Notes: generated from the sequence alone by a model not told the origin. A stretch of DNA of 64,000 nucleotides from Lytechinus pictus (GCF_037042905.1 NC_087250.1:8744001-8808000); one strand, 5' to 3'. Shown: positions 25,329-62,900, numbered from the stretch's first letter. Translations and numbers: made by a program.

Positions 25329-25339
25329 TTCATCTTACC

Positions 25340-32050: not shown

Positions 32051-33489
32051 TTGTAGTTAATCTACAAACCAACTTCTTAGCGAAATTCTCCATAGAAGAG
32101 GAGTTAGCCTGGATAGACATCAGTGTTGATGATGATAGCGGGATAGTTGCCTCCTCGGATGCGCTAACATCCGATCCGGCTTCAGAGGCTGCTACAGGTT
32201 CGGCAATAGGTTTAATTACAGGTTCTGGGTCGGCTACAGGTATGTCTACGTGATTAGTTTTATTGAAGTTGATGTTCAATTTGTCAATTTTTCCTGGATA
32301 GACATCAGTGTTGAGGATGATAGCGGGATAGTTGCCTCCTCGGATGCGCTAACATCCGATCCGGCTTCAGAGGCTGCTACAGGTTCGGCAATAGGTTCAA
32401 TTACAGGTTCTGGTTAGGCTACAGGTATGTCTACGTGATTAGTTTTATTGAAGTTGATGTTCAATTTGTCAATATTGCCGTTTAACGTTTCTAATGCAAC
32501 TGCAATCCTACACAAACTGTCTGATATCGATGTACCATTACAGCTTTTGCCATTCTTTCTCTCCTCTCTTGCCCCTCACTCGCTTCATCAACCCACTCAC
32601 TCTTCCATCCATCCTCTCCCTCCTCTCCATCCTCTCTCTCATTCTCTTCCTCTCCCTCCTCTCTCATGATATGTAGAATCATTGAGAGAAAAATGTCACA
32701 TGCTACAAAGTACAAACAACACAAATTTTCAGCAATGTATCACCTTTCAAATCTTCACTCCACATGTTTTATGGTAGCACATCGATTACATTAATACTGT
32801 ATTAAAGAGAATGCATAATCACAATATTATCTTAAGCAAGAAATGTTCAAATCAATGTTTACTTTTAATCTGGCCTCAGCCTGGCCTTGGCCTATCCTTG
32901 TCATTGCCTTGGAACTATCCTTGGAATTACTCAGACCCTCGGCCTTGGCATCGTTCCTGATCGTGGACATGCTGGCCTTGACCTTGAGTGAGCCATACTT
33001 TGACACAAAACTGATAAATACATACCTCTCTCCCTGGAACATATTAAGCATGGCCAGAGGGAAGCCATTCCGGCAAACAGCCCCAAACACTCCCTCGATG
33101 TGAAGCATCTGCCTTTTTCTTGGTTCTAAGCAGAGTTCCTTCCTTGAACTGGCTACAGTTCTAAATATCAAAAGAGCAAAGAAAAAAGAGATCTATGAGG
33201 AAAATAGCTTTGGTGACAATCCATGCAATCTGCCACATACAACAAATGTGAACCAACAATTGCAAATATATTACATGTCATTGTCAGTAAACGAATGTCT
33301 GGAGCGAAATTAATTGAGAGCTCAATCTGTAATCTACCAAGCCCCTGCGACCAGCTCCCGCAACCACCTACAGTAAAGTGTTGATGGCCATAAAAAAAAA
33401 ATATGCACTTAATGTTCAGCGACACTGACTTTTGAATTCAGGAAATTTTCAATGCAATGTGATGCACATTTATAATTAGTTTTTAGATC

Positions 33490-34160
33490 TCATGAGAGTT
33501 CTTATTGCATCATTTGTGAGTGCATTAGTCAAGATATGCAGTTCACTCAAGGGCATAGTACATGAAGCACAAGGCTTGATATAGAGTGTGTTTGCAAAGC
33601 ACTGTATGGTCAACACTTTACATACATGTAAATTACCTTTGACGCTTGACCATGTTCTATCCTGTATCCATCCACAAAGTTCTTTACATATTCATCCTCT
33701 TGGAAAAATGTCTTACGGTGAGTAGTTCCACCAGCACTTGAACCAGCTCTCTTTCTCCTCACCAAACCAAAGCACCCATCAATGCAAACATTCACTTGAC
33801 CAGTGACATTTATATTTAGTTTTTAGAGTTCTTATTGCATAATTTTGCACATTATACAAATAATTCACAAGTGTGAGTGCATTAGTCAAGATATGCAGTA
33901 CACTCAAGGGCATAGTACATGAAGCACAAGGCTTATAGAGGGTATTTGCAAAGCACTGTATGGTCAACACTTTACATACATGTAAATTACCTTTGACGCT
34001 TGACCATGTTCTATCCTGTATCCATCCACAAAGTTCTTTACATATTCATCCTCTTGGAAAAATGTCTTATGGTGAGTAGTTCCACCGGCACTTGAACCAG
34101 CTTTCTTTCTCCTCACCAAACCAAAGCACCCATCAATGCAAACAATCACTCGACCAGTGA
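33490..34160. repeat. Tandem duplication (~355 bp) of the KDZ DG exon plus adjacent intron
   Basis: ORFs 33610-33795 and 33964-34203 are nearly identical. Confidence 0.9.
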
Positions 34161-35000
34161 CCTTAAAATTAGATAAAGGCAACATTTTGTCAGCAAATAA
34201 CATGGAAAACTAACTTTAATACGTGAATGAAGACATTTTACCTGCAATAAAATTGACAGAAATGTGATTTCATGTACCAATGCAAACAGAATTTGCATTG
34301 GATTTGCACATAACTCATTTATGAGCAACTTTGGGTCTGACATGCACTTACAAAATCCTATGTATTATTAATAATTGCTCATAGCTACTATTTATTAAGT
34401 AACTATTGAATTATGTCTAAAGATGGCGCTATGAAAAAAATAGCTGCTTGGTCTACGCTCATTTTGTCTTGGCTCGTCTCACATGGTCCAATCAAACTTT
34501 ATTTACTTACCATTTGGTATAATTGCCACTTGGCATATGCAAAATTTTATCTAATTCTCATTTCATGTAATGCCCAATTTGTTTAATATCCAATTGGTGT
34601 AACATCACTTGGTTTATTAATTATAGACTAATTATACATTCAGAATATGATTAAATACAATTAGACCTCTTGGTTATATTTTAGACTAATTGGCAATTAA
34701 ACAAACTGATAGCAGATCGAATGGGTAATGCAATTGCGAATAAGGTATTAAACGATCAGATAATACATGTAGACCATCTGCTACTAGACCAAGTGGATAT
34801 GAACCATGACTAGTATCCCCATGAAAAGAATATTTTGGTTAAATAATGTTACCTTTGGGCAAGCAGGGCAGGAAATGCTCCCTAGCAGATTTCAGATTAC
34901 GCGAGGACACAGAGCGATGCTGTAAAGTAGTCAACAGGACAAACAGTTAATAGGCCTAAGACATCATTCATAATGTTCACAGCAATACTTTAATCATAAC

Positions 35001-35276
35001 CAGGGGCAGATCCAGCTTTTTATAAAGGGGGGGGGGTTGGGGTGGTATGCGAGGGAGCGTAGCGACCGAGTCCAAGCGAGCGGAGCGAGCGAGGGGGGAG
35101 GGTGTGGGAGGGGGGTGTCCCACAGTAGGGAAAATTTTTGAAAAATAAATACATAGAAATAGAATAAAATAAAATTACAAGTTTAAAAAAAAAGATAAGA
35201 TTTAAAAAAATGGTCCCCGGATTTTTTTTTTGGGGGGGTTGCAACCCCCCCAACCCCCCCTCTAGATCCGCTTCTG
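35001..35276. mobile_element. MITE inserted in the 3' LTR
   Basis: ATAAC|caggggcagatcc..gatccgcttctg|ATAAC; absent from the 5' LTR. Confidence 0.8.
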
Positions 35277-36261
35277 ATAACATAATTAACTCTGACATGT
35301 TCGGTAAGGTAATCTCGTTCAAAACTATGGAACGCCAAGTGTGTACGTGCTACGACACTACAATCCTCCTATCTTGCGGATTGAACTCAACAGCACAAAT
35401 ATGTGATTTGCTCTTTACACAAGAGACATTTTTAACGTTGTGCAAGTACTGTTTGGTTAGCTTATTAACTTGTTAGCTACTGAGCCATTGCATGCAAGAC
35501 GCATATAAGTAAACCAGAATATAAACAAAAACAGAAATTGATTGTTTGATAAATCTGTATCACTTGACTATATGATAAGATGTGTCACTTGATGAGAATA
35601 ATGCTATCATTTGCATACAAGAAATTAATAATACATGTAGTGAGTTGTTTGTCATTGTTTCTCTTAATGATGCTACATGTATGTATTTGAAACTTCATAC
35701 TTTCATATACTGTGTGCTTCAATTTTACTTTAGAAACAAGCTGCGTGGATTGTGTGAACACAAAATAGTTTTGTATCAAACATACTAACTACAAATGTCA
35801 AAACAAACTTTGTTATTCATTTCAAACTAAGCTAACAACAAACTATCTGACCTGTTTTAAACTATACTACAAATCAAATTTTTTGCTTATTTAAATTTAA
35901 TGCAGAGAGACTTTTCTCTTAAAGTATACACCAAATAATGTCTTTTGACTCTTTTCCTTGACACTAAAGCAAATAACACTGTTAGCACATGACTAAATTC
36001 CAAAATAATCATAAAGAGACTTTCTTCTGTTAGTTTGTTCTACTCTGGTATCATGTTCATATACATATAGATATTACTTCCGTTAGCACAAAACACAATA
36101 TACCAACAATCTTATGTGAGCGTGTGTGTCTACTATTCAATTTCCAACTATTTCTGGCTATCTAGATACATGTTTCATCTTGCATATAATACAAATGATG
36201 CACATACATAATCTTTTTTTCTTTTTTTTTGCAACAAATAAGGCATACTGTATGCATATGT

Positions 36262-36395
36262 GGAGCGTTGTGGCCCAGTGGATTAGTCTCCGGACTTTGA
36301 AACAGAGGGTCGTGGGTTCGAATCCCAGCCATGGCGTAATTTACTTCAGCAAGAAATTTATCCACATTGTGCTGCACTCAACCCAGGTGAGGTGA
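36262..36395 (+). mobile_element. tRNA-derived SINE, 5' half
   Basis: A box tggcccagtgg, B box ggttcgaatcc, core gtgctgcactcaacccaggtg; ends abruptly at cccttgtaaaaaa. Confidence 0.85.
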
Positions 36396-36407
36396 CCCTT
36401 GTAAAAA

Positions 36408-37075
36408 AGTACTGCGGTAGTACTGCGGTACAAGTACCGCAGTACTACCGCAGTACAAGTACTGCGGTAGTACTCGTGGTAAATTGGTCGGTACTACTGC
36501 GGTAGTACCGCGGTAGTACCGCAGTACCTGTACTGCGGTAGTACCGCGGTACCTATACTGCGGTAGTACTGCAGTAGTACCGCAGTACAGGTACTGCGGT
36601 AGTACCGCAGTACCTGTACTGCGGTAGTACCGCGGTACCTATACTGCGGTAGTACCGCAGTAGTACTGCAGTAGTACCGCGGTACCTATACTGCGGTAGT
36701 ACCGCAGTACAGGTACTGCGGTAGTACCGCGGTACCTGTACTGCGGTAGTACCGCGGTACCTGTACTGCGGTAGTACCGCGGTACCTATACTGCGGTAGT
36801 ACCGCAGTAGTACTGCCGTAGTACCGCAGTACCTGTACTGCGGTAGTACCGCGGTACCTATACTGCGGTAGTACCGCAGTACAGGTACTGCGGTAGTACC
36901 GCGGTACCTGTACTGCGGTAGTACCGCGGTACCTGTACTGCGGTAGTACCGCGGTACCTATACTGCGGTACTACCGCAGTAGTACCGCTGTACCTGTAAA
37001 CCTGTACTGCGATAGTACTGCGATAGTACCGTGGTACCTGTACCATGGTACTACCCTGGTGCTACTGCGGTACTT
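36408..37075. repeat. GC-rich quasi-palindromic array (gtactgcggtagtaccgc), probable subterminal repeat of a CACTA/EnSpm-like end
   Basis: Directly follows CCCTTGTAAAAAA at 36396. Confidence 0.8.
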
Positions 37076-37171
37076 GCACACCTTTATGAAAACGATCACA
37101 ATTTCATTTAGCTTAATCACAGTAATAAGAAAATTACAAAAGTATTAATATTATAAAAAGTTTATTTTGAG

Positions 37172-37203
<32 letters not shown>

Positions 37204-38000
37204 GTTTTAACATCTGTAATCATGTACTTTCTTACTAACATGACTAAGTTTTGGCACACACAATGGCTAAATGGTTGGTTGAGGTAACGGGATTCCTGAA
37301 GTTTTAGCACACACAATGGCTGAATGGTTGGTTGAAGTAAAGGCAAGTTAAAGTTATATGCTTAATATTTTACATGATAAAAACTGTAGTGAAAATCATC
37401 TGTACTCGAGTTGCAACAAAAACAAAGATATCTAACATCTCTACTTTAGTACTTTTATAACAACTATGACTAACGAGTTTTAGGTTCACGCACAATGTTT
37501 GTGGTGAAGGCAAGTTGAGATTACGCTTCATATAAAAAGTCTATACAATTTCCAAGAACTGTTGAGTTGTAAAACACTGTCCACGTACTTGTATCAAAGT
37601 TGCAACAAAAACATAAATCTTCCAATCTTTGACAAGGTAAGTAAATAGAAGTAAAACATGATTATTTAAAACCATTAAAACTAAACACATGCATCATATA
37701 TGTAGAAATTGCAGCAGATAATCTATCAATAATATCTCAAAACTGTAGTTAAAAACATCTCTACTGAGTTGCAACAAAAACATGTAGATATCTAACATCT
37801 CTACTTTAGTACTTTTTTATAACTACTATGACTAACGAGTTTTAGGTTCGAGCACAATGTTTATGGTAAAGGCAAGTTGAGATTACGCTTCATATAAAGT
37901 CTATAAAATTTTCAAGAACTGTTGAGTTGTAAAACACGTACTTGTATCCAAGTTGGAACAAAAACATACATCAATCAAGTTCCTTCCAATCTTTGACAAG

Positions 38001-38450
38001 TAACACGAATAATACAGTCAATTCAATCTTTATTTCCAAATAAAGATTGAATTGAGCGGAGAATTAAACTGACCATAAATATATATTATAGGTAATAAAG
38101 AGCAAAGAAAATGGGGTTCCATCGGGATTCGAACCCGAGACCTCCGGATTGCTAGCCCGGTGCTCTACCGACTGAGCTATGGACGGCCCTAGTCGATAAT
38201 TCGTCCCATAAACCCCTTAACTTTCAATGCTCGTATGGTCAGAAGCTATAGAAACCTGACATAAACCCAAAGGATAGAATCAACTTTATAGGCCTATGCG
38301 AGGGATCACGGCGAAGTGATGCAGCTTTTTGAATATATAATTAACACGAATAATACAGTCAATTCAATCTTTATTTCCAAATAAAGATTGAATTGAGTGG
38401 AGAATTAAACTGAACATAAATATATATTATAGGTAATGAAGAGCAAAGAA
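38001..38450 (-). mobile_element. Short element with ~110-bp terminal direct repeats, central tRNA-like sequence and 13-bp TSD
   Basis: Repeats 38001-38111 and 38342-38452; TSD aatctttgacaag; empty site at ~37624. Confidence 0.8.
38113..38186 (-). pseudogene. tRNA-Ala(AGC)-like sequence
   Basis: D arm gctcagtcggtagagc, anticodon arm ccggg-ctAGCaa-tccgg, T arm tcgggttcgaatcccga; acceptor stem only partly paired. Confidence 0.65.
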
Positions 38451-39837
38451 AATCTTTGACAAGGTAAGTAAATAGAAGTAAAATATGATTATTTAAAATA
38501 ATGAATCATAAATAAATAAATGAATCATATATGTAGAAATTGTAGCAGATAATCTATCAATAATATCTCAAAACTGTAGTTAAAAACATCTGTACTGAGT
38601 TGCAACAAAAACATGAAGATATCTAACATCTCTACTTTAGTACTTTTTTATAACTACTACAGATAATCTATCAATAATATAACAATATTTGTTACAGCAC
38701 TTTATCAATGTGACCTTACACAACAAATAAGTAGGGTAAATATATTGTGTACACATATAGAAGACAATGCCTTTAAAATGTTACATGAGCATACTTTGTT
38801 ATTTGGCACAAGGCAAAGTTTTTAAAGGACGAGAGGAAATTTGCCACTTAAATAAATGGCGTCAAACGCATACACATTATCAAAGTTATTTTTCAGCACA
38901 CAATGAATACATTTCAGCAATATCTTTGGCAAATAGAGTACGGAACAATCAGGAACATGAAATAATTTGGTATATTCCCGTCATTCAAAATCATAACAAA
39001 AGCAATTTTAATTCCATTCGCTTTTGTTTAAAGACCAGATTAACAATACCAAATGTCTCAAATTTTAATGCATGTTTGAGGCAATTTAGGTTCCCCATAT
39101 AAATTTTGATGTCTTCCAAGAGACGTAGTTTCTTGTTAGTCTGATTTGATTCCATTCTTCAAGGTGAATTTGGGCTTTTATCCGTAGATCATATATAAAT
39201 GCCATTTTTTGCACAAAAAAATCTCAAATTGTTTCCTTATCAGATCAAAATTTACTCAACAAGAAAGTTCTTGACACTTATTTGTTTAGAAGGGTGCCAA
39301 CAAAGAACACTGATTGATGCGTGCGCACTGTCATTTGATATCCACATGCCAAAACATAAAATTTAATATATTAGTACCAGCTGGACGGAAAACACAATAC
39401 ATGCCTAGAATTGATGTGATGGCCCATGAAGAGCTTTTTATCAAAATAGCTTTAGAAACAGGTGAAATGTTAAAGATCATCAAGCGTTGGGATGCTACGC
39501 TACAGATCGCCATTTTGAACTAGGCTAGTTTGTGCGCAAGATGGCACTGTGTGTATGATAAACGATGCAGGAGCACCTTTAATATATCAGATAAGGATAA
39601 TTCTGGCCCCTATTAAAACATTATTATTATTTTTTTTAATGTTGGTCTGTAGCAAGCATTATAGCAATGTAGCAATGCCTGTGGTCTAAAACATATTCCA
39701 ATCAACCAAAAAAATACACAGGAGCGACGGGCGATTCAGAAGTGCCAGAAACGTACCAAACATGGCATACTCGGATAGGTCGCATCATGATGATCATACT
39801 AAATTATATTTGGAACAGAATATGCATGTGCTTGTTA

Positions 39838-39995
39838 AGTCCTCTGATGCTGGCAGTGTTCGGCAGGCCCATGTTACTGACCTCGTCACTGAATGGTGCG
39901 AAGAATGTGGCAGGTCGCGCAAATTTGCCTCCTCTGGACAGTGAACAGGGGATAATTAGTAAGTAACAAGACTTAGCTCATTATTAATTAATTAG
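39838..39995 (+). repeat. Inverted, diverged copy of BEN-gene exon 7 and its splice donor
   Basis: LMLAVFGRPMLLTSSLNGAKNVAGRA; reverse complement of ~41385-41527. Confidence 0.9.
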
Positions 39996-40854
39996 TCATC
40001 TTGACAAAGTGCTTCATTCGGTCTCATCTTGTGGTTCTTGGTTTAATTCTTTGGCTTGGTTTTCTTTGGCTTGGTTCTCTTTCGGTTGAGATCTACGTTT
40101 GGCCAACTTAATTTCGTTGCCAACTTTGTTCCGCATAACGATGCGGATTTCCGATGATGACACTCCTGGGAACTTTGACTTGACATGACCTGCAAAGGAA
40201 CACGTAAAAAAAAAAAAAAAAAAGATTATAGTCAAGGTAGGTAAATGAGAATCATAGCACGACTTGGGTGCCAATGGCCACTTGAAATTTTATTTGGCCA
40301 CTAGAAATAAGAAAGAAGCTCTGTATTAGCCACAAACTTGTTAGGTTCTACAACACACAAGTCTATGATCAAATATATTTAATGTGTTATGTTCACCTGT
40401 AAATAAAAAGCTAAGCACTAGCCCTGCATAGATTGGGCAGTGATATCTTTTTATAATAAGTAGGCTGATACGGGCTATTCCAGAGTCAAAGACATTACAA
40501 ATATGAACTAGATGGATCTTCGATTGCGAACTATAAAAAATCCTGCTTCCGCTATCGCACAATTTAAAGGATGTAACTTGTACTTTGAATACAAAGCTAT
40601 GAACAAGTTTATACACTACAAGTTTACAAACATTTGGCTCATCAAATGTTCAGCTATTTCATAAAATGTGTACCATCAGGATCCATTACATAATTTGCCC
40701 AAATATGTAATGTCCATGATGGCACACATTTTCCACTATAAACGAACAATGAATGAAGAAAATATTATCAAATCAAAATTGCTGGTAGCTTTGTAATCTG
40801 AGTAAAAATTACATAATGGACGGGTACATCTGTCAGAAGTGATCATGATATTGG

Positions 40855-41208
40855 GAAACCCTGTTATAACGAGCTCGCTTATAATGAAGTACAGGTAACC
40901 CTGTTTTAACAAGGTGGTCGGGACCATCAAATTTACCTCGTTATATTAAGCGGTACTTCGTTATAAACGGCAGATTTAATAATACATATAAAACACAGAT
41001 TTACGATCGGGACCAAAGGATTCCCCTCGTTATAAGCGAGTTCGTTATAACGGGGTTTCCCTGTACCGCTTATAACGAGGAGAATCCTTTGGTCCCAATT
41101 GTAAATGTGTTTCTATATGTGTTATTGAATCTGCCGTTTATAACGAGATACCGCTTATGACAAGGTAAAATCGATGGTCCCAAACACCTCGTTATAAGGG
41201 GTTTCATG
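40855..41208. mobile_element. Tc1/mariner(Tigger)-like MITE remnants with an internal inversion
   Basis: Repeated cgttataacg motifs; aaaccctgttataacgag / cgttataa.ggggtttc. Confidence 0.55.
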
Positions 41209-43138
41209 TGCACATGTACAAATTTTAAAATTTTAAAATCCAACCACTTTGTTAGCGGAGGGTTAATGATTAAAATGAAACATTAATGGCATTGCATAAT
41301 ATTATCTGCACCCACCAAATTTGTAAAGCTGACAAATTTAAACACAAAAACCAAAATTGTACATCTTGACAAATGTTTAATCAATAATGAGCTAAGTCTT
41401 GTTACTTACTAATTATCCCCTGAAGCTTGTCACTGTCCAGAGGTGGCTTTGCGCGACCTGCCACATTCTTCGCACCAGTCAGTGACGAGGTCAGTAGGGT
41501 AGGCCTGCCGAACACCGCCAGCATCAAATCGCAGGTGTACTTGCGAAAATCACCAGCGTTGCACCTGTCGAGGACGTTTCGACTAAGAGAGACCTTCGAT
41601 CCAAGGGCAATCTGTTGGGACTTAAGAAAATACAACATGGTTAGTGATTATATGCTGATATACCCTACTGACTTAATCATGGCCAACATAAATGAGGGTA
41701 AATTTACTGTAACATATTTAATGCAATGGTTGAAATTAACAAAGATTTATACAAACCATTGTTCACATCTATGAAATACCATTTGTAAACTGATGGATAA
41801 AATAGATGGATCTTTTGACTGTGCGCAGGAAGGGGAGGACGGGGGTTGGATTCCACCCCCTCACTTTTTGCACGATAATTCTGCAACGCACGCAGGTATT
41901 GCCGCGCGACTTCAGGAGTTTTTTCATCGAAGTCTTCCGCATCGTATGAGACCAAATTTCGCAACGACCATGTGTATACCCTTTTGTAAGCGATTGCTAG
42001 CCCGGAAATCGCTAAATTTTGTGATTTGTGTACAAATCCTATGGAAACTGATTTTTTTTTCCAATAAGAGAAAAAAGCTTCATTAATTTTTTTTTCAATC
42101 AAAACTATCTTTTGATTTTGGGCTAAAAATTGTTGACTGATGGTAAATAATTTTTCCATCGAAAAAACAAACAATAAAAAATAAAATAAAATAAAAAAAA
42201 AACATAAGAAATTCCAAAAACAAAGAAATACACCAGGAATTATTTGGCTGTCGCAATTTTGAAAACATGTTATAAGTTATAAAATATGATGATGCACAAA
42301 TTGAGCATATTGTCAATTATATTTCGAGATTTATAGACAAAAGGGATTTCGCATAATTTTGCATAATTAACAATACTGATTTTTTCAAAAAAATATTACA
42401 ATCTTGTAGATTATGTCGCAGGTTATGGTGCCAACTTTCGTGGCGGCGGCGCGTTCTGCGGCCGAGATTTCTTGTGGGGGGGGGGGTGCGGGCTATAGAC
42501 TAACCTGGCCTGGTGAGGACTAAATACTGTTAACAATATTGACAGTACACACTTAATGCAACAAATAAATGTTTCTGAAATATTTTGCCGATTTGCAAGC
42601 TCGAACCATCATATAATTAGAAATTGTTATCTTGTATACGAGCAGTAATCAATGTTAATCATGGTTATGTACAAATTTTCTTTTTGAATCTGGGCCACTT
42701 AGTCGAACTAAAATATTTATACATGAAGTAATTACCTGTGGTCGTGCTGATGATGGCGAGGATTGGGTGGAGGACTGGGTGGAGGAACGAGCGGGCGAGG
42801 AACGAGCGGGCGAGGATGATGTAGATGACCCTCCTGATGGACAGTGCATCTCTTCATGATCAGCCTGCCAATGAAAACGAAAATCCATATTTCATACCAT
42901 CAAATATTTACCAAGATTTTACTGCAAAGTAGGTCAAGCAATCAAAGGAAACAAAAGCAAACAGAAAATAGCAAATAGCATAAGAGATTTGCATGCATGT
43001 TTCCTCCTCTAAAAAATGACTTCTAAATAGTTACTAATTCCCACTGATTCAGTTTTCATAGACCTATACAATATAACGATCCATCCAGAGTAATTCATCA
43101 TAAACACAAATGCACGCTGGCCTGGAATCGCTTTGCCT

Positions 43139-49978: not shown

Positions 49979-52101
49979 TTAATGAGTCACAAGTAGATCT
50001 ACTAACATACACAAGGTGTTTTACACATATGACAAGAATATATAGGATTAGGAATGGTGGCAGTGAGTGAGCATGTCAACAATAATGTTACATTCCCATG
50101 GCCATGCACACGTTTGTCTTCGGCTTCGCAGACGCAGTTTCTTTTTGGAAGGTTTAGATCTATTTGAAAGTCGATTTGAACTTGAAGAAAAATATGTAGG
50201 CCTACGTTAAATTCTTTAGACTTAAATATTGTATGACATCAGATGTGTTCATTATGAGATTGTGCAGCCGATCATATAATTTTCAATTTGATTTTATGCA
50301 GAGAATATGTATTTTTGACATTATTCGTTGACATGTACGTCATTGTAAATATGTATGACCACAATTATCGTATAGTAATGCATGCATGATGCATGGGACT
50401 GAGTTGCATGGGTACACCGTACGGACTTACTATTTACAGCCAACACTGTTGCTCGATACTTCTCCGTTTTGCTGCCACTGACCCACATAACTTCAACAGC
50501 TTGATCGACATAGCTTTCAGGATCCACATCCTTGTCCGTGTCTAATATCCAAGAAAATGGTCCAATTTCGACGCTGTCATCGCTTTCAAATTCAAAAAGA
50601 CAGAAGAACTCGTCTGAAGCTGGTGGCGGCATAGTGAGGCTGAGATCTTGAATGAAAAATAGACGATCGCGCGCGCCTTTCTACGATCCAATAAAAAAGG
50701 TGCACGCGCGTCACGTGATTTTTCGAGATACGCGCATGCGTCCTTCAGGTGATCACGATTGTCAAACAATCGCGTACATATTACATCGCATGATTTTACT
50801 GTTCAATGTCCATATTGCATGTAAAGATTAATTAGCCTATATAAATTTCCCGGGATAATTATCATCCTTTTATTGTGAGTATAAACGATAATTGATTTAC
50901 AGGGACCGCGGGGTATCGCGGAACGGGGTGGGGGGGGGGGACTGAGGGTTGCAGCCCCCGCCCCCCCCCCCTCCCCCATAATTATTCCAGGATAAATATT
51001 CTCCAACGACATTGTTACAAAGATATATCTACTAAATGTTTCCGTTCAAACCTGACCACTGTTAATGAGGCAATTCACAAGCTTGAATCATGCGTTAGAA
51101 CGATCGTGAATTGTGGAGGTTTTCAATCTCATGAAATCGTTTGTTTGTTTGTTTTTCACAGTATACATTTTTTATAAAAAATGTTCAATTATTTCAATTC
51201 AATTATGGGCGTCGATCCCGATCCATTCATCAGGGGATGATCGGGGCACCACCCCTTTCCCTGATGAATACTGGGTATTACGTAAGTATCGACGCTCATA
51301 TTCCGGCCGGGGCTCATAATAGCATTTAATTGCTCCGATTCATAATTTTGTGAGAACCTATACTGAAAAGTAGTTGAAAGTTTTTTCAATTCATATTCCT
51401 TAAGTGTTGGGTAGAAGAGAAATACGAAACATATAGTGGGTCCTAATTGTTATATAGGCCTATCAATTTCGAAGTAAATTTATATCATTTCCGAACCGGC
51501 ATCTAACATTGTAAATTGGTAAGCGGCAATGCCGACAAGAAAAGACAAACTTACTCAGTCAGGGGGCTTGGGGGCGCCCCCCCCAAAAAAAAAAAATAAA
51601 AAAATAAAAAAAATAAAATCATGGTTTTTTCCCAATTCCATAACAGTGATTGAAAAAAATACTATTTCTTCACACATGAAAACTCAGATTTTACTTTATG
51701 TCAAGTCACATAATTCAAAGCAAAACATTATATAAAAACACATTTAGGGGGGTTTAAACCCCCTTGGGCTGCCGAAAATACGCTACATACGCTGCTTCAC
51801 AGCTTGGGCCGCAAAAAAAAAAAGCACAAAAACGCAAAGTTTCGCCACTTCACGGCTCATTTCGTCAAAACCCCCTTGGTAAAATATTTAGATCCGCCCC
51901 CCCCCCCCAGCCTCTTTAGGGTTAATATTTGCAACCAACAAAAAAACCCAGTAATAATTGAAATAAAAGAGAAAACTCAATAAGGTGCTATGTATTTTGT
52001 GTTGCATTGTGTTGTGTATCCTAATTCTTTTTTTTTTTTTTTTTTATCAAACTTGGAATGGGATGAAATGCACTGCTGTTACATAATATATATGTATATA
52101 C

Positions 52102-53588
52102 CATAGGCTTAGGAACCGGGGGGGGGGGGGGGGGGGGCTCGGATATCATTGAGCCCCCCCCCCCCCCCAATATTTTTGGCGGGGCTAATATAATAATATC
52201 ATTGAGCCTCCAATTTTTGGTCACAGATCCTGGATCCTCCTCTGTTAAGCCCATGTTAAAATGATTATTTCAGATGATTTTTAAATGTGGGATTAGAATG
52301 CAGTGATTTCAGGTCACTTTATCGAGAGAGAAAAACTTCAGCTTGCGCTACGCGCTCCCATGATTTCATTGCCTTTTGCAGTGGCGGCGCCACAGGGGGG
52401 GGGGGGCCCACACACCTCATATTCTGGCAGCGAGGTGCCCGAATGCCCTCATAATTTTGTAATTTCATGCCTGTCATATAAAATTTCGGCATTTTACACA
52501 GCAAAAATCTCAAAATTGTTGGTCAAAAAAGCCTAAAAGGCCAAAAAATTGTGCTTGCTCGCAAATTAAAACAGGGAAGTTGTTAACAAAAATATTGAGC
52601 CCCCTAGATAGGTGTGCCTTTACCCCCATCTTCAAACACACGCACAGATTATATTCTGGCAGCAAGGTGCCCGAATGCCCTCACAAATTGGTAATTTAAT
52701 GCGCGTCCAATAAAATTTTGGCATTTTAAACACAAAAAAAAAAAATCTCAATTTTTTTGCTCGCTCGCTTCGCTCGCTCGCAAATTTAAACCAGGAAATT
52801 GATATCTGGCAAAATTGTTCACCCCCCCCTAGATAAAGTGTGCCCGTATGCCCATCCTCTAATTTATTGTCTCAACCCCCCCCCCCCCCTAAAACCATGA
52901 CATTGCACAAACACAGATGCACTGCTCATAATCTGGCAACAAGGTGCCCAAGTGCCCTCATAATTTTGTCATTTCATGTCCATATTTAAAAAATCGGCTT
53001 TTCACAGCAAAAACCTCAAAATTTTTGCTCGCTCGCTTCGCTCGCTCGCAAAATAAAACCGGGACGTTGATATTCGGACAAAAAGGTTGAGCCCACTTGA
53101 TAAAGTGTGCCCTTACGCCCATTTTTTTATTGATATCTAAAGCCTAACACCTCCGCTTCCATTTTACCCATGGAACATTTTAGTAAAGAATAATACACAA
53201 CTATTATAGTGAAGAGACATAGAATTTCAGAATATCATGCAATCGTGCACTGGCTGGTTGATAATTACAAACACACATCAAAGGACCTCGAAACTGTATA
53301 ATCATAATGATATATTTTGCATTTTCATGTTATTAACGGTTAAAATAATTGCGTGTGTTTTTCTAAAAATGGGGGTAGAGCAAAGAGAGAAGAAAAAGAA
53401 AGGCTTAACAATTTACGCAAAAGGACACTCTAAAAAGGCGCAGAAACAGAAAAAAATGACTGTCTAAAATGCTGACAAGGGGGGGGGGGGGGGAGTCGGG
53501 GGGAAAAAAATCTTCAAACGGCCGGTCAAAAACAAAAGATCTAGCCCCCCCCCCCTCCCCCAATCCTAAAAATCTTCCTAAGCCTATG
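52102..53588. mobile_element. TIR element (hAT-like) with ~270-bp internal repeats
   Basis: CATAGGCTTAGGAA ... TTCCTAAGCCTATG; tgctcgctcgcttcgctcgc repeats. Confidence 0.75.
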
Positions 53589-53754
53589 TATATATATAAA
53601 TATATATAGGCCTATAGACCCTATAGGCTATACATAAATATACATAATATATATATGTAATTATGTAGGCCTATATGAAGCTGTCAAAGTGATATTATGT
53701 GAAGAATGGAGGAATCCTGCACTAAAAAGTGGAGGAGCTTAGTGCCACACTACA

Positions 53755-53905
53755 CCTGGCAGGAATTTATTCCTTGAAATGCCCCAGCGCTGTAAAAGGC
53801 TGCGGGGCTAAAGCCAGGGTAATAATATCCAAGTCCTTTGGAAGCGCGTAGAGACGTTATTTATAATGTGTTATGCGCTATACAAGAACTGTCTATTATT
53901 ATTAT
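53755..53905 (+). mobile_element. tRNA-SINE 3' half with (tat)n tail
   Basis: cctggcaggaatttattcc..gcgctatacaagaactgtctattattatt; continues the 36262-36395 head as judged from the 2645-2840 copy. Confidence 0.8.
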
Positions 53906-54194
53906 ATGCATGTACATGTGCCAACAAGCTCAGTTGCCAAACTGTTTCTCTTTGAAATAGGCCTATTTGTTTTGGCATTCTAACAATAACTTCAGATATT
54001 GGATTCTGCATTTTACTGAAACAATGCTGGTTGATCGTAATGAATCTTGCATGCGATGCATGTACAAATTATGCATATTGATATGATCACATATTAGTAA
54101 CATTAAACTTGCATTGCAACATGAGATATATATGAGGGACTGCAATCATCAAGTATACAGGTACATGTAATAAACACAATATTAATTGTTATAC

Positions 54195-55698
54195 AGTCAA
54201 GTATAATAGTCATTCAGATATCGTGGAGGAGCACGAACGCGAATGGGATTTCTTCGTGCTACCATAGGAGGAGTTTAGTTTTGAGGATGGGGGTTCACCA
54301 TTTGTGGCAATAGCACATCATCGTAATCACCTGTTGCCACACAAGTGTCATGTCGACCTTTCAGGACTTTGAAGCATGATGAATTTTACGTTACGCGGTA
54401 TGAGCGACGAGATGCAACGATTTGCGAACCTTTTATCGCTTCGACCTTCAATGGTCTGGTATCAAAAGGAGTGGTGTATTTACCAATATGCCCATCACGC
54501 TTTACAAGGACATAATCACCAACTTTGATTTTTGATTCACTGATTCTCTGATGCTTTTCTGCGTTTGCTTTTTGCTTCTCCTTCATAGACTTTTCGCGAT
54601 TGCGAATTGGACCGTCGTTTTCCACTTGCGATTGCGGTTCAGGTAGGCGAGTGCGGATTGGACGCTGGAACATGACCGTTGCTGATGGTATGCCAGATGT
54701 GCTATGTGGAGTAGCTCTTGTTTGGAGATAGTGTTGAATGTTTCTTTGCTCATAATATTCACTGAAGCACCGGTGTCGATGACGACAGATGTCATGACAT
54801 TGTTGATGAGCACTGATAATCTGAGCAATTGATTACTCTCGTCAGATGAGCCAAGAGCAAACAGATAGTCCTCAGAGGTTGAATCTTGAGCTAATTGTGG
54901 TTGTGACGATGGTTGTTGGGACATTTGATCCATGACATTAACTTCCCCTTGTTTGAGCTTACTTCGGCACATTTTGGCAAAGTGATTTGGTTTCTTGCAG
55001 AATGAACACGTTTTTCCTTGTGCCGGGCATTGATCACTATGAGGATACTTGTCACCACAGTTGCGACAGCCTTTAGACTTCGATTGAAGATGATATACCT
55101 TTAGGTTTCCGATTCGGTTTATGTCTGTTAACGTAGTGCACATCAGAGGTTGTTGCCGCACTTTTCGAGATTTCGCTGGCATGTGCAGTAGCTGCTTCAG
55201 CAGCCCTGACGGTTGTAACTGCTTGTTCTTATGTCAATTTTGCTTCGCGAAGAAGTCGCTGATGAATGTTGGAATTTCGCATTCCTAGGATTATTCTGTC
55301 TCTGATGAGAGATTCTGTCAGAGATTCAAACTCACATGTTTCAGCTAACAATTTGAGGGATGTGACAAAGCTCTCAAACGATTCGCCCTCTCTCTGAACT
55401 CTAGTGTTGAAAATATAACGTTCATAAGTGGTATTGGCATGCCCTTTGCAATGTTCATCAAATTTATTGATTACCTTTTTAAACACCTTGGAGTCAGCTG
55501 CCGTGTCCCAGGTGAAGGTGTTATAGAGGTCTACCACCGGCTGCCCGATTACGGCCAGTAGAGTGGCTACCCGCGGCTCGCTATCCCCGTCGCCAGCTCA
55601 AACTTGCCGAATGCCTGTTTGAACTTCTTGAAGCTTGTTGCCAGATTTGTCGAGTCAATCTCCAGAGGGAGAGGCGGTGGAATGGTGAAGGTTGCCAT
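54195..55698 (-). pseudogene. Gypsy gag-protease fused by deletion to the integrase C-terminus
   Basis: ATG at 55698; YERYIFNTRVQREGESF..LIRDRII; CSFCKKPNHFAKMC knuckle; DTGAS protease; then RATPHSTSG..PIRTRLP; no RT or RNase H. Confidence 0.9.
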
Positions 55699-55876
55699 TT
55701 TCTCTCGTCGCCAAATCTAAAGTAGTCAACAGGACAAACAGTTAATAGGCCTAAGGCATCATTCATAATGTTCACAGCAATACTTTATTCATAACATAAT
55801 TAACTCTGACATGTTCGGTAAGGTAATCCCGTTCAAAACTATGGAATGCCAAGTGTGTACGTGCTAGGACACTACA

Positions 55877-57727
55877 GACGCTCGCCTGTGAAACCCAAGG
55901 AAAAACCAAACCTAAAACCAGAAATCAGAAAAGTCGCATTCCGCTGATTAGGGTGCCGGCGAAGAAATGGGAGCATGCTGCCAAGTTTAATTGGAGTTGG
56001 AGCCAGGCTTCTGTTTACCGGAGTTGCAGGCGTGTGAGTTATGCGCTGTTGAGCATTTTCCGCACCGGTAAGCATAACGGCAGGCGGAGCGTTGACATGA
56101 CCCAGCGTTAAAGGCAAAACAGACGGGTGAGGAGCGGGAGGGGGCAGGCGCGGTGCCAGGGGCCCGAATTGCCCCCTGTCTATTGAAATATCGTGTGGAT
56201 GGGACACTACCCCGCCGAAACGACCGGTCGTATGGCCGAAAGGGCTGGTTACCCCCAAAGGACGAAAACGCTGCTCGGCCGGGCATCGAGGCTACTGTAA
56301 GCCATAGCTCAGTGTCTATGACAGCCCAGGAACGATGTGGGTGTCGGGCCTGACGTAATCGAAATTGAATGTCATATGCACGCCAATTGAACCCCCCAAA
56401 ACGCACTATAGAGCGAACGATATCCATATACTTGTGGAGCTCGCGCGCATGCATACAGTGTCGCTCCAAGTATATGGACGCGTAAATAAGGAAAGCCGAG
56501 GTCCACTGCTCTATGCTAGCGATCACTGGAGCCTTGCTTTGGGGGCGAAGCATTAAAGTGACCCGGTGGCACAAAGGCTGAAGGCCTGCAACAGGGAATT
56601 TTCCTCACTTAAGCTTTCCCTCTTTAGCAATCCTCCTAACTCTACAAACTCACCCTTCTAAATCTTCTCCTTAACACTAGAAGGCACCTCCCACCCAAAA
56701 CATCACACACGCAGCTAAGCATATCTGGCTGCTTAGGAAAAGGAGGGTCGAGGGCTGGTGTATTACTATTAAGCTCCTCAACCACAGGGGCAGAATGGAT
56801 AGAAGGGGGGGGGCTTGAGATTGAATTTGGGGAATGACCGGATCTTGTGGAGGAGTCACAAGAGGCCAGGAAACCCCCATTGTCCCGAACTCATCACCGT
56901 TGGTCGCCGACGCCGAACTTCCAGCAGATGGGCTTTGCGTAGAACTAAAAACTTGACTGACGTCTGTCTCGAGGTCGACAGGAGAAGGCTGGCTGGCAGC
57001 ATCTCGGACCGAACGACGAGTAGATTTCCTCTGATTTGATTTTTTGCTAGGCTTAACCTTAGGCATGATTGGAATAATGCAGGGGTGGTGATGAAATTGA
57101 AAAGTCTTGAAGGCAAACTGTGACTCCTAACAACTGAAAAGTCCAACAAACGGATAACACAGATATGCAGATATGTTTCCAGATAAGGAAAATAAATTTT
57201 TCAACTGCAAAGCGTTCTTTAAGAGCTATATGAATGGGTTAAAACGATAACCAAAAAGATCACAAAACAGAGAAAGCCTCTATATTTCACTGACACAGAG
57301 CCGGTTACAAGAAACTTTTGATACAGGAAAAAATACAGGAAGTATGTTGCACAAAACAGGAGAATTGAGATGAAAGATGCTCTTCAATCGACTCCAAGAA
57401 GAAGAATGCTAACTTAATAGAATTTAGATTTCGCCCCCTCCCGAAATTACCACGTCAGCTAACGCGACATAGCATTTTTTAGCTACGCCTCCTTGTGATG
57501 TCCGAAAATACAAAATTCGCAACGCAACATTTTTTAGGCCACGCCTCCTCGTGAAGTCCGAACAAATACCATATTTGGCATCGCAACATATCACCGCCAC
57601 GGCAAAGGAATTCGCCTGACCAGGCCCCCTCCTTGTAAAACACCTGTTACGTACCGCTGGCGGGATATGTTGTTGTGCAGCTAGTCTGACCTGAGATAAC
57701 CTCTCATTAACTCGCTTTGCACGTTAA
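55877..57727 (-). mobile_element. DIRS-group (tyrosine-recombinase) retrotransposon, 5' part: gag and RT start
   Basis: IEQWTSAFLIYASIY..WRAYDIQFRLR..WAVIDTELW, Cys/His finger, TPIK..LISGFRFGFSLGF; frame resumes past the Gypsy at 34915-34875 (RSVSSRNLKSAREH). Confidence 0.85.
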
Positions 57728-58164
57728 GAGGTATTACAATCATATCCAGGGACAATTTTGGCATCGACATTGGTATGGAAAGCCTGAAAATGACTGAAAC
57801 TGTGTTGGGGTCAGCTCTGAGTACAGCGCATTGACCTATGAAAAAAATATAAATGCACACACTTTACAAATAAGTATCACCGAAGAACATATCCGCATCA
57901 CATTACAAAGAAACTGAAGCTATACTAAGCTGAATGGGGGGGGGGGGGGGGGGTCACCGTATGCAACCTGTCAAAAGATAAATTAATGAGGAGCATGTTT
58001 TCTGGATTTTAGTGATATTTTCATAACTACGCATAGATCATCAAAACAGTAGTGGGGCAAGGCCATTGACAACAGATATTCATAAAATGAAATGGAATAT
58101 TAGCAATTAAGTAGATAAAAATCTTTATATATCCAACTATTATGAAAATGATTATCAAACTGCC

Positions 58165-59420
58165 TATTGCATACTTTAAGAAAGTTGTACAGACACCTCT
58201 CTCTCTCTGTTAATCTGATTTGAAAGCCTATAACTTGACATGCCGCCTTCAATGACACATGCGCTTCCACCTGCATGTAGTGGATGAATGTCATTGCATA
58301 CTTAGAGAAAGTTGTACAGACACCTCTCTCTCTGTTAATCTGATCTGAAAGCCTATAACTTGACATGCCGCCTTCAATGACACATGTGCTTCCACCTGCA
58401 TGTAGTGGATGAATGTCATTGCATACTTTAAGAAAGTTGTACAGACACCTCTCTCTCTGTTAATCTGATTTGAAAGCCTATAACTTGACATGCCGCCTTC
58501 AATGACACATGCGCTTCCACCTGCATGTAGTGGATGAATGTCATTGCATACTTTAAGAAAGTTGTACAGACACCTCTCTCTCTGTTAATCTGATTTGAAA
58601 GCCTATAATTTGACATGCCGCCTTCAATGACACATGTGCTTCCACCTGCATGTAGTGGATGAATGTCATTGCATACTTTAAGAAAGTTGTACAGACACCT
58701 CTCTCTCTGTTAATCTGATTTGAAAGCCTATAACTTGACATGCCGCCTTCAATGACACATGCGCTTCCACCTGCATGTAGTGGATGAATGTCATTGCATA
58801 CTTTAAGAAAGTTGTACAGACACCTCTCTCTCTGTTAATCTGATTTGAAAGCCTATAACTTGACATGCCACCTTCAATGACACATGCGCTTCCACCTGCA
58901 TGTAGTGGATGAATGTCATTGCATACTTTAAGAAAGTTGTACAGACACCTCTCTCTCTGTTAATCTGATTTGAAAGCCTATAACTTGACATGCCACCTTC
59001 AATGACACATGCGCTTCCACCTGTATGTAGTGGATGAATGTCATTGCATACTTTAAGAAAGTTGTACAGACACCTCTCTCTCTGTTAATCTGATTTGAAA
59101 GCCTATAACTTGACATGCCGCCTTCAATGACACATGCGCTTCCACCTGTATGTAGTGGATGAATGTCATTGCATACTTTAAGAAAGTTGTACAGACACCT
59201 CTCTCTCTGATAATCTGTTTTGAAAGCCTTTAACTTGACATGCCGCCTTCAATGACACATGCGCTTCCACCTGTATGTAGTGGATGAATGTCATTGCATA
59301 CTTTAAGAAAGTTGTACAGACACCTCTCTCTCTGTTAATCTGATTTGAAAGCCTATACTTGACATGCCGCCTTCAGTGACACATGCGCTTCCACCTGCAT
59401 GTAGTGGATGAATGTCATTA
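58165..59420. repeat. 125-bp tandem repeat, ~10 copies, derived from the KDZ CxC exon end
   Basis: ORF starts spaced by 125 bp; unit encodes MTFIHYMQVEAHVSLKAACQVIGFQIRLTERE. Confidence 0.95.
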
Positions 59421-59729
59421 GCTCCATGGGAACAACCTTTCTTGGTTTTAGTTGAGTGGGCCTTAGGGAATAACGAACCAGGGTGGCTGCCTCTGGTTCA
59501 CATTTACAAAACGTGCACAACACATTATGAAGTCTTCCTGAAAATATATATACCAGTAGTGAAAAGAAAACTTTCGAAATGAGAGTACACAATCAGTCAG
59601 CAGATCCTCAAAAGATTGCTTCTTTCATCCAAGTGATTTTCATTACTAGAAGATTTTATCATTTTTGATGAGCTTGGTGCAGATGAAAACACCTCTTTTT
59701 ATTCAGCCATTGCTGCTCTAAACTGATAA

Positions 59730-59995
59730 ACAATGGCCTAGCGTCCTTTGGCAAGGTATTAATTCACAATTTGCCACTCTCCACCAAGGTTTTAAATGGG
59801 TACCCGGTGGGATGCGAAAACCTACCGTATGTAGTATGCCTAGCAATTGAGTCTTGGAACTCTTGTTGGAATGCTCCCCAGGAAGTGGAGACAGTGCATA
59901 CATTGAGTGTGGAAATGTCAGGATCCAAAGGACTGGGATAATAATTGCGATGTAAAGTACTTGTAACAAGCCCTATGTTACTATTATCATTTATT
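59730..59995 (+). mobile_element. SINE of a second family, 5'-truncated
   Basis: cctttggcaagg..cactctccaccaagg..aaatgggtacccgg core, atgctccccaggaagtggag, tgtaaag tail. Confidence 0.6.
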
Positions 59996-62900
59996 ATAAA
60001 TCGATTTATTGATTGAATAATTGACTGATAAAAATATAGCTTTTAAACATATTTTCACAAGGGGCTTTGAATACTCCATCCCACAGAAATTTTGTTATAC
60101 TCTCATATCTTTTGGTGAAAATAATGCCAAGACCGCTTCTTTCCTATAATTTCAAAAGGTTTTGTGCAAAGTTTTGTGGTGATTGATGACTTTTGGTCAT
60201 GGCATTGCCCTTATGTCGAGATTGACATCAGCTCCTTTTATACTGTGTAAATGTCACACATGAAACAGATAGCATTTCACGATATGCACATGTATGTATG
60301 GTAAATACCTTTAGAATCAAAGACTTCAAGGGTCTTTCCATAAGAAGTATGGCAGGTATGACTCTGTCTAAGAATTCTTGTTTCATCATCTACTAGTTGA
60401 CCCTGTGATCAAATTAAAAGAAAAAAAGGTTACGGGGTATTAGCTATGCCTTGTACTACTACTAGAAGACATCTCTTCCAAAACTATAGTTTAATCAGTA
60501 GAATATTATTAAATGTGATGTTTTGCCGGAAAAGTTTCCAGTATAGTGGCAACATTATTATCATGGAGAGGGTTTGTGTATTTGGTTGTCAATGTGTACA
60601 AAGCAAAGTTATTCATAAACAGAGGAACTGAATGAGGATATTCACTACTGACACTTGGAGTACAGTCTACGAGATTGAATCCATAACATAAAACACTACA
60701 AAAACTATTTGTGATGACATGGTCAAAATGTTACTTCTAAATATTTGAAGAATTACATATAGTGCAGATATAAAGTCTCTGGATGGAGGTCACAATTTTC
60801 ATGGGGTTACTTCAAAGTTGTGACATCAGCAATGAACTAAATCTAAATATGCTTGCCTATTAGAGGCACTTGATTATTTGGAAATTTTGGGGAAAATAAA
60901 TATGTAGTGAGTAGCGTAATTACCTATCTGGTACTTCTGCAACAATTTTCGCATCTTCCTCCAAATTCAAGAGTTGAACCTCTGACAATGTACATACAGT
61001 GTTTCTCTGTGGATGTCAGCAGCATAATCGGGCAAGAAATCAGGCTCTGAAATGGAGTGATGGCCAGATACTGTGGGTGGAATATCTTGCCCTTTCACTG
61101 AAGAAAAAAGAAACGATACATTCAAGAATCAAACAAAATAATATTTATGTAAAAACATGTTTTTTGTAATTTTTTTCTTATGGTGTAAATCACAATCAAA
61201 AGAACCAAGAGGGACTACTTTGCACAAATCGCTAGAAAAGTTGTGGAGATGTAACCTCTGGCGGGGGAGCAAGGTTTCTGTAGTAGTCTACTAGCTAATG
61301 TACACTGTATGTGCTGCATCCGCGGTGTTCTGCTTGGAATTACCCCTCAGGTGTAGGATAAGTACTCTCCCTTGGGTACCCTGACCAAGTAGTTGCAAAA
61401 ATAGCGCCTCCTGGTCACCACAGAAAAATTGAAACTGATTTTTTGCTCAGTCCTGCAACTAAGGGTTTCTGGATTTAGCGTAACCAATCGCTTGCACTGA
61501 GCCTTTGTATAAGAGCTGGCCTGTTTGGGGTATATCCCTACGGCCAACTTCCACCTCCCATCTTTGCGTATGGTGGGCTATGGGCCAGCACCCTGGAGAG
61601 GAATGTGGGGTCCATATAAAAGTGTGGGACACAAAAGTTCATGACCTCCTACCCCTCCCCCCCCCCCCCCCCCGCTCTACAGGGTGCTTCGGCACCACTC
61701 TCTTCCCCTTTTTCATATCTCATCTGCAACTTTTGGGGTGAAAGTGACTATCAAAGCCTTCTGGTTGAGATGGGGGCAGGGGCTGGAAGCAGGGGCATCC
61801 CTTGGCTAAAGTAATTAAGGAGATCCTTCCCTCTTCTCTTGGTGGGGAAAGTACTGGGTTGAATGAAGCCTCTACCCCTCGTAATTATCCTACCCCTACC
61901 CTTATCCTGGAGTGCCTTATTGTTTCTTATGGCTGGGGCAGGGCCAGGAACTTCTTGAGTTCCTTTTTGGAGTTTAGGAGAATCCCTTGACTCTGCCCTT
62001 GGTTGCCTTTTGACTCTATGCAAATTACATAACCATGTTCTTTTATTCGGGGTCCCGGGTGGTGGGTCAGACCCATCCTCGCCCTCAGTTCCTCGGGACC
62101 GCTCGTCAATGTAAGTGGCCCCCCGGGGGCGGGATGTCGTTGCCCAAAGTTGGCTTTCTATAGCAGTCTCTTCCTCCATTCAGGTTTTGGATGGGTTGGG
62201 CCGGACCCATCCTTGTCCTCAGTTCCTCAGACCAGTTGTTCCTCAGGAGGGGGGGGGGGTCGGGGTCGTTGCCCCAAGTTGGCTTTCTATAGGGGTCTGT
62301 ACCTCCACGGGGAGATCGATCAACTCCTCCCCGGCTTGGACTTGTATCTCTACCATCTGGAAAGAGAAAAGGAAACAGGTTACCCACAATTACAAAGTGG
62401 AAAGAAATATTTGTCAATATACATGCCTTCTGCATGAATAACACCAACACATGAAATCAATCATCAGGGTTTGACAGTAGCAGTATCTTTCCTTCCTTTA
62501 GTCAGGTCTTGAAGGCTCTGTCTTATCAAGGCACCTTTTACGTTGGTTGTGATTCACAGTCAGGGCCTATTTCCTATAAATCAACCCAATATACGTAAGG
62601 AGTATAATGTTTGACAATCTCCCTCCCTTTGTCTGTAAAAAAAATATTAAACTTTCTTCATACACAATAACCCTTATTATATGATAACATTATGTCCTGT
62701 CGTGCCCCACGTATTTCCTTTGGGGCCACATCACCAAGGGTACTAGATAAACTAAGATTTGGCCCCCCTATCGGAGAGTATGAGCTATTAAAAAAGTTAA
62801 ATTTACCGTTCAGTCCATTGACATTAAGACTGGTTAGTGCAGTCAGATGAAGAGGCTACTAAATGAAAAAGGGTCTAATTTCTCCTCGAAGTATGCAATC

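Follow-up and report, generated by a model that had tools for sequence, protein, structure and literature searches.

Among the described systems closest to the locus studied here, the Zisupton elements of fish occur as multi-copy families. Zisupton elements are presented in PMC9297572 as multi-exonic DNA transposons, with sea stars and lancelets among the best matches, and PMC12730594 (Kojima 2025) attributes to them terminal inverted repeats (TIRs) and 8-bp target-site duplications (TSDs). The latter paper describes the fungal Kyakuja and Dileera elements as multi-copy and often linked to TET/JBP genes. In sea urchins, a repeat table in PMC13745590 gives 443 Zisupton fragments, and a genome paper (PMC11316814) contains the word Zisupton once. 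The KDZ family, its presence in echinoderms and its intron content are already known. We analysed a 64-kb stretch of the 812-Mb genome of the sea urchin Lytechinus pictus (G000:C6:8744001-8808000, hereafter the window, to which all positions given without a contig refer), for which the original prediction, made from the sequence alone, had proposed a multi-exon KDZ/CxC transposase reconstructable over 27 kb and belonging to an intron-rich and possibly poorly catalogued echinoderm family. The segment 32801-60510 is very probably a non-functional, unprocessed partial duplicate of a KDZ/CxC gene whose intact copy lies on contig C1.

KDZ/CxC homology and the gene on contig C1

Firstly, a six-frame scan of the window placed the four predicted motifs on the minus strand, in the order and within the bounds that had been given for them: a CxC-like part at 59324-60402, CPACPK at 34856-34870, DGCFGLVRR at 34120-34134 and GVFGAVCRNG from 33082 on (GVFG at 33082-33093). 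The scan also returned a second DGCFGLVRR at 33766-33780 and a third DGCFG at 21576-21590; the exon bearing this motif thus occurs three times in the window, which the prediction had not mentioned. The stop-to-stop open reading frames (ORFs) of the window hold these peptides as scraps. With one exon ORF as query, we recovered one longer protein, 90% identical to the ORF: P0001, the 840-residue isoform X2 of Lytechinus variegatus LOC121428660, which NCBI names 'uncharacterized protein'. Pfam assignment was made both per exon and through this natural full-length homologue. P0001 scored 156.2 bits against KDZ (PF18758; curated cut-off 26.6 bits) over residues 308-518, 27.0 bits against CxC2 (cut-off 27 bits) over residues 175-245, which correspond to pseudo-exons 3-4 listed below, and 25.7 bits against CxC1 (cut-off 26.9 bits). 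As a tblastn query, P0001 matched the minus strand of the window in five collinear pieces (E 8e-14, 4e-33, 7e-9, 2e-27 and 2e-10, well above any chance similarity) that are 78-90% identical to it and cover its residues 158-410 only; no match to residues 1-157 or 438-840 was found in the 64 kb at E<1. The matches lie at 60405-60286, 59562-59341, 57835-57727, 34164-33991, 33807-33637 and 21620-21441, a ladder of repeated matches runs from 59363 to 58178, and a match at 33160-33016 is divided between two frames. Taken singly, the pseudo-exons stay below the KDZ cut-off because the pieces are short (20.5, 16.8, 15.0 and 17.1 bits; profile length 217): pseudo-exon 7 gave E 4e-4 at profile positions 69-104, and pseudo-exon 6 gave E 5.7e-3 for copy 1 and 0.02 for copy 2, both at profile positions 2-45, and 4.8e-3 for copy 3. 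The CxC cluster is present 5' of the KDZ part, pseudo-exon 4 giving sub-threshold matches to CxC1 (E 1.3e-3) and CxC2 (E 2.3e-3), and the domain order CxC then KDZ is retained. Judged by these alignments, the window pieces are assigned to the KDZ/CxC family, as had been proposed.

Secondly, searching the whole genome with P0001, where all 51 of 51 candidates were scored, and C1:37898001-37928000 by tblastn revealed an intact 18-exon KDZ/CxC gene at G000:C1:37903349-37922855. All 18 exons occur in order, in stop-free alignments 78-100% identical to P0001; apart from exon 3, whose alignment extends into the intron, each reaches at least 87.5%. The gene retains every family-invariant residue. All five window pieces map to this single gene; they do not derive from different families. 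No second intact KDZ gene was found genome-wide with P0001, with the Patiria protein P0002 (13 of 13 candidates scored) or with the Pfam KDZ profile (6 of 6). Beyond the C1 gene, the P0001 search and its companions returned the window fragments, a last-exon array on contig C20 and divergent partial matches on C18 and C11, that on C11 being weak. Within the sensitivity of these searches, the KDZ family in this genome is tiny, a single intact gene accompanied by scraps, and has not expanded in the manner of a transposon family. Of the features that the prediction had proposed to look for, one intact copy was found, on C1, but no TIRs or TSDs around it. The flanks of the C1 gene, examined over 5.3 kb on the upstream and 5.1 kb on the downstream side, contained 5 exact inverted 12-mers against 4.95 in shuffles, the longest being 13 nt; blastn gave no flanking inverted match around the gene, and the whole-genome P0001 search found near-identical copies nowhere.

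Two of the scraps have features of their own. At C18:9504915-9509265 lies a divergent relative whose N-terminal part is 35% and whose CxC exon is 63% identical to P0001; KDZ-domain exons went undetected there in the P0001 and P0002 genome searches. At C20:17191834-17193824 lies a tandem array of at least 8 copies of a unit of ~311 bp, 85-93% identical to the C1 gene and made of ~290 bp of intron 17 plus the last exon.

The claim that the family is poorly catalogued is weak. The L. variegatus homologue is an annotated NCBI gene model, and homologues of P0001 carrying KDZ and CxC Pfam labels are in the databases for Patiria miniata (32% identity over 99% coverage), Anneissia japonica, Branchiostoma, Dendronephthya, Halichondria, Macrostomum and fungi, those of Patiria and Anneissia standing in NCBI/UniRef.

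Thirdly, we compared the 30-kb C1 locus with the window by blastn. Collinear segment pairs, 89-93% identical including gaps, cover introns 2-7 of the parent, and no further collinear piece of the 30-kb locus was found in the window. The homology extends as follows (C1 positions refer to the composite of the locus).

32801..60510, minus strand: full extent of blastn homology to the C1 gene, C1 composite 6635-10738, ~4.1 kb of parent
C1 composite 6635-6696: window 60510-60449
C1 composite 7212-7700: window 60463-59977
C1 composite 7925-8566: window 59948-59293
C1 composite 8440-8566: nine stacked copies in the window
C1 composite 8440-8994: window 58294-57733
C1 composite 8997-10038: window 34874-33825
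C1 composite 9708-10738: window 33807-32801

Counting substitutions only, the window copy is 94.70% identical to C1 in introns (2567 positions) and 94.15% in exons (735 positions). Since the homology continues through the introns, the copy is an unprocessed, DNA-level duplicate. It holds exons 3-7 of 18, from intron 2 to intron 7, that is parent residues 159-406 of 840 (248 residues), and its 4.1 kb of parent sequence have been expanded to 27.7 kb by insertions and tandem duplications. Exon boundaries were taken from the C1 sequence and checked for ag/gt, and lesions were called by base-by-base alignment to C1.

60309..60402, minus strand: pseudo-exon 3, parent residues 159-190, start of CxC; 3 nt added in frame, ag/gt kept
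59324..59537, minus strand: pseudo-exon 4, parent residues 191-262, CxC cysteine cluster
58166..59419, minus strand: tandem array, period 125 bp, 10.0 copies, 97% matches (Tandem Repeats Finder)
57733..57835, minus strand: pseudo-exon 5, first 102 of 126 nt, parent residues 263-296; 1-nt insertion with frameshift; ends at the insertion breakpoint
34853..34874, minus strand: pseudo-exon 5, last 22 nt, ..SCPACPK, then a conserved gt donor
33991..34161, minus strand: pseudo-exon 6 copy 1, parent residues 305-361, DGCFGLVRR, start of KDZ; open frame, splice sites kept
33637..33807, minus strand: pseudo-exon 6 copy 2, acceptor AG changed to AT
33026..33160, minus strand: pseudo-exon 7, parent residues 362-406, NCSQFK..GVFGAVCRNG..GE; 2-nt deletion
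21447..21617, minus strand: pseudo-exon 6 copy 3, isolated, 12 kb away

The outer bounds of the prediction fall exactly on 60402, where pseudo-exon 3 starts, and on 33026, where pseudo-exon 7 ends, but the compatible phases it had read across the exons do not hold. Pseudo-exon 4 carries a 1-nt deletion near its 3' end that produces a frameshift and a stop (..KAACQV*), pseudo-exon 5 a 1-nt insertion, and the 2-nt deletion in pseudo-exon 7 puts NCSQFKEGTLLRTKKKADAS and EGVFGAVCRNG..GE into different frames. CPACPK, which had been read as a separate exon, comes from the final 22 nt of exon 5, which 22.86 kb of repeats separate from the first 102 nt, and the R of the predicted 'GER' is intron read-through, the exon ending GAGAG before its gt donor. 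The tandem array and the extra copies of exon 6 are products of duplication: the 125-bp unit consists of the last 96 nt of exon 4 and ~30 nt of intron 4; copies 1 and 2 of exon 6 lie in a tandem duplication of ~354 bp (33515-33807 versus 33872-34161, 96.2%); and copy 3, 96.8% identical to copy 1 over 190 bp versus 91.6% to the parent, is therefore a secondary local duplication.

We infer that the window copy makes no transposase: it lacks the N-terminus, everything beyond the first half of the KDZ domain and hence the entire C-terminal half of the protein. In an alignment of 12 metazoan and fungal KDZ proteins, 21 columns are invariant. Six of these fall in the window copy (C363, C391, R392, H393, G405 and E406), where pseudo-exon 7 has Asn in place of the family-invariant His393, and the other 15 fall in missing exons, among them Y432, D433, H462, H466, C470, D486, E488 and E491. 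The missing part of the KDZ domain contains 12 of the 21 and presumably two catalytic-triad residues, the second Asp and the Glu. A live or reconstructable multi-exon KDZ/CxC transposase gene over 27 kb, from an intron-rich echinoderm transposon family, would account for the right order of the motifs, for the splice sites, most of which are kept, and for the single-exon Pfam matches (E 4e-4 to 0.02). With 248 of 840 residues, three frameshifts and a stop, an exon 5 split by nested transposons, the bulk of the invariant columns lost and a genome holding one intact gene and scraps in place of a family, this explanation is scarcely credible.

Nested insertions in exon 5

The 27-kb span, which had been taken for intron richness, reflects nested transposon insertions within one exon. 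At the break in exon 5, the parent reads TGTAATCG followed directly by TTCCTG, whereas the window reads TGTAAT, then 22.86 kb of other sequence, then TTCCTG. Three kinds of repeat were delimited in this block.

55877..57732, minus strand: element A, main part, a repeat dispersed in many copies, with its 5' terminus directly at the exon-5 break
34875..34920, minus strand: element A, last 46 bp in the window, contiguous with 55877 in other copies
34921..55876, minus strand: element B, a long terminal repeat (LTR)-type retroelement inside A, with TG..CA ends, direct repeats and a 5-bp flanking duplicate
35001..35276, strand not assigned: high-copy element of 276 bp, resembling a short interspersed element (SINE) or a miniature inverted-repeat transposable element (MITE), inside one LTR of B

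A genome search with 53000-57732 as query gave 2739 first-look candidates for element A, of which 40 were scored. Three copies were fetched together with flanking sequence. Each begins to match the window at the same base (57735/57736), next to unrelated upstream flanks, and in each 55877 continues straight into window 34921-34875. Since 55877 is joined to 34921-34875 in these other copies, element A consists of 55877-57732 plus 34875-34920 and is inserted in exon 5. Matches ending at the last query base are forced by the cut of the query and were not used as evidence. The window copy of A is truncated at its far end relative to the other copies; a clean TSD for A was not found at the exon-5 break, where 2 bp (CG) of the exon are missing.

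Element A has two minus-strand ORFs, at 56677-57126 (149 amino acids) and 55987-56604 (205 amino acids), the second with a CCCH-type cysteine pattern; neither has a Pfam match. A classification of A by its 'C3H1-type domain' was not adopted, as it came from Atlas clusters only, with a recognition value of 2201, below the 2300 reached by 91 of 100 known-family proteins.

Element B is bounded by direct repeats of ~160 bp, at 55718-55876 and at 34921-35000 plus 35277-35362, and flanked by the 5-bp duplicate GCGTC/GCATC. Gag-like ORFs lie at 54386-55597, with Pfam matches below cut-off to zf-CCHC (E 0.012) and gag-asp_proteas (E 0.0014). Three other copies of B were located, at C2:32.32 Mb, C7:29.35 Mb and C6:26.68 Mb; the window copy contains a further inserted block of 17.6 kb (36258-53899), which the copies on C2 and C7 lack. 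The 276-bp element has at least 36 genome matches of 89-96% identity covering exactly this stretch (40 scored of 1381 candidates).

Several other repeats occur in the window. A minisatellite at 36495-36981, built of ~17 copies of the 25-bp near-palindromic unit GTACTGCGGTAGTACCGCGGTACCT, generates long spurious ORFs on both strands. A 4-kb satellite-like array at 6764-10741, with self-matches of 85-89% identity spaced at multiples of 33 bp, lies where GC skew is strongly negative (-0.21 to -0.35). The segments 24015-25919 and 29622-32512 are linked by several local segmental duplicates of 100-340 bp with 91-98% identity, which shows that small duplications are concentrated in the sequence flanking the pseudogene.

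Constraint, expression and origin of the copy

Not every observation favours a copy without function. The splice sites are intact in 6 of the 7 pseudo-exon pieces of the main block, and exons 3 and 6 retain open frames. Between the window pseudo-exons and the C1 exons, the ratio of non-synonymous to synonymous divergence (dN/dS) is 0.20, from 24.0 synonymous and 19.0 non-synonymous differences, which is below the expectation if one lineage had evolved neutrally since the split, and suggests that selection may have acted on the copy during some of its past. Polarity is not strict, because P0001 may be the orthologue of the C1 gene and not an outgroup. The genome searches score the best candidates only, so that a very divergent intact KDZ gene could escape them, and ~6% of two RNA runs leaves low or tissue-restricted transcription possible.

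Use of dN/dS as a test of past function was abandoned: the synonymous and intron yardsticks disagree, the counts are small and no conclusion is drawn. The 19 non-synonymous differences over 570 sites amount to 3.3%, about half the intron value of 5.3%, and the synonymous value of 15% is oddly high and would hint at earlier constraint on the copy. The figure of 3.3% against 5.3% in introns fits one lineage evolving neutrally and one under constraint. Among the 19 amino-acid differences between window and C1, 18 are specific to the window, with C1 identical to P0001, and one is specific to C1; at six further positions, five of them in exon 6, P0001 alone differs. The 18 window-specific changes would point to relaxed constraint on the copy, their polarity being suggestive only.

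Expression was assessed in two raw RNA-seq runs carrying the same species label (rRNA-depleted long-RNA libraries, tissue not stated), of which ~6% each was sampled. Depth was 0 in all 15 bins of 59908-60510, which include pseudo-exon 3, and 0 over 59457-59661; the unique part of pseudo-exon 4 was likewise without coverage. One run showed a depth of 4, a handful of reads, over 59293-59415. The reads over 59356 carry the base that the first exon-4 copy lacks, and two reads have a back-joint of 124 bp, so that their source must be either the tandem units or the parent gene. Reads lying only partly on the stretch account for 461 of 461 and 496 of 498, and pile on two short intronic repeats. Among runs recorded as RNA, none contains the stretch 59293-60510. 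The coverage in the two sampled runs is weak evidence that the window copy is silent. The same zero depths add to the case against a live gene. They also bear on whether the fragment was co-opted as RNA, as a long non-coding, antisense or small-RNA source acting against the parent KDZ gene. Small-RNA clusters are found in dense repeat regions, and repeats and local duplications are tightly packed here, but no reads fall on pseudo-exon 3 or on the unique part of pseudo-exon 4 in these long-RNA samples; we consider such co-option very unlikely.

Copying probably ran from C1 to C6. In the copy, exon 6 was duplicated in tandem, the 125-bp piece of exon 4 and intron 4 amplified ten times, and one exon-6 copy moved 12 kb. 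Repeat A inserted in exon 5, followed by the LTR-type element B into A and by further insertions into B, for a total of 22.86 kb. The copy itself may have arisen when part of the gene was duplicated segmentally or by ectopic repair, or may be the decayed remnant of a once complete second copy. It starts and ends inside introns, with no element termini or TSDs there, and no carrier transposon was found at either boundary: upstream of 60510 there are only weak, short repeats, and downstream a high-copy element ends near 32050-32055, ~750 bp from the end of homology at 32801.

The repeat at 30392-32055 is very abundant and young, with long inverted arms (30392-30997 versus 32006-31399, 90%) and at least 39 genome copies of 93-97% identity over ~1150 bp (40 scored of 1363 candidates).

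Intron 2 of the C1 gene contains a MITE-like element of 514-515 bp, at positions 6698-7211 of the piece C1:37898001-37908000, whose 22-bp inverted ends match perfectly and consist of long G/C runs. AGTAGTAGT flanks it on either side. In the window copy the corresponding site, at ~60449-60463, is empty, with one copy of AGTAGTAGT. The insertion in the C1 gene would therefore postdate the duplication, unless the element was lost from the window copy.

The decayed-remnant origin has a stronger form, in which the fragment is what is left of a once complete, transposed KDZ element and the C1 gene is the last intact element of a nearly extinct family. The dN/dS of 0.20 hints at past constraint on the copy, although by the intron yardstick it looks neutral from the start. 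Scraps of the KDZ gene exist elsewhere, namely the C20 array and the divergent partial relatives on C18 and C11, and the C20 array supports repeated copying of pieces of the gene. The identities of metazoan homologues are patchy and out of step with phylogeny, at 38% for sponge, 37% for crinoid, 35% for lancelet and 32% for sea star. The lack of TIRs within 5.3 kb and 5.1 kb of the C1 gene, which speaks against a transposed element, is not decisive, as some Kyakuja families have none according to PMC12730594. With boundaries in introns 2 and 7, no carrier transposon and no near-identical copies anywhere, we hold this explanation to be possible but rather unlikely. A second proposal, to be taken as tentative and no more probable than the last, is that the C1 gene could be a domesticated KDZ transposase with a host function in echinoderms, of which the window copy and the C20 array would be failed duplicates. 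The C1 gene has one lineage-specific amino-acid change against 18 in the window duplicate, and full-length homologues of similar size occur in sea star, crinoid, lancelet, coral and sponge.

Significance and comparison with known systems

What looks, from its chain of motifs, like a large transposase gene rich in introns can turn out to be a pseudogene of 4 kb that nested insertions have drawn apart. For annotators, reading motifs exon by exon overlooks frameshifts, and what had been called reconstructable here is a frame-broken portion of the protein. The discovery value is small: the object in the window is an ordinary dead fragment, and whether the C1 gene is mobile or domesticated is a modest question. 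As by-products, the locus provides a clean example from a sea urchin of how successive nested insertions can be traced, and a pointer to an intact, single-copy KDZ gene on C1.

Like fish Zisupton as characterised in the sources cited above, the C1 gene is a multi-exon gene for a KDZ transposase-like protein; Zisupton has TIRs and 8-bp TSDs, but none were found within about 5 kb of the single intact C1 gene. With the fungal Kyakuja and Dileera proteins it shares the Pfam KDZ domain and an N-terminal CxC cluster, and the 21 invariant columns align, while the fungal KDZ proteins are 18-19% identical to P0001 over the whole alignment and 22-30% in local alignments. The window copy belongs to the same family as the C1 gene and P0001, with the same exon-intron layout, and is ~94% identical to C1, introns included; in contrast to them it retains 5 of the 18 exons, some of them duplicated, is disrupted by three frameshifts, a stop and an insertion of 22.86 kb, and cannot encode the protein. 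It most resembles unprocessed duplicated pseudogenes, which keep their introns, have their parent elsewhere, carry disabling insertions and deletions and receive later transposon insertions. What is unusual here, compared with such pseudogenes, is that exon pieces form tandem arrays, 125 bp repeated ten times in the window and ~311 bp repeated eight times or more on C20.

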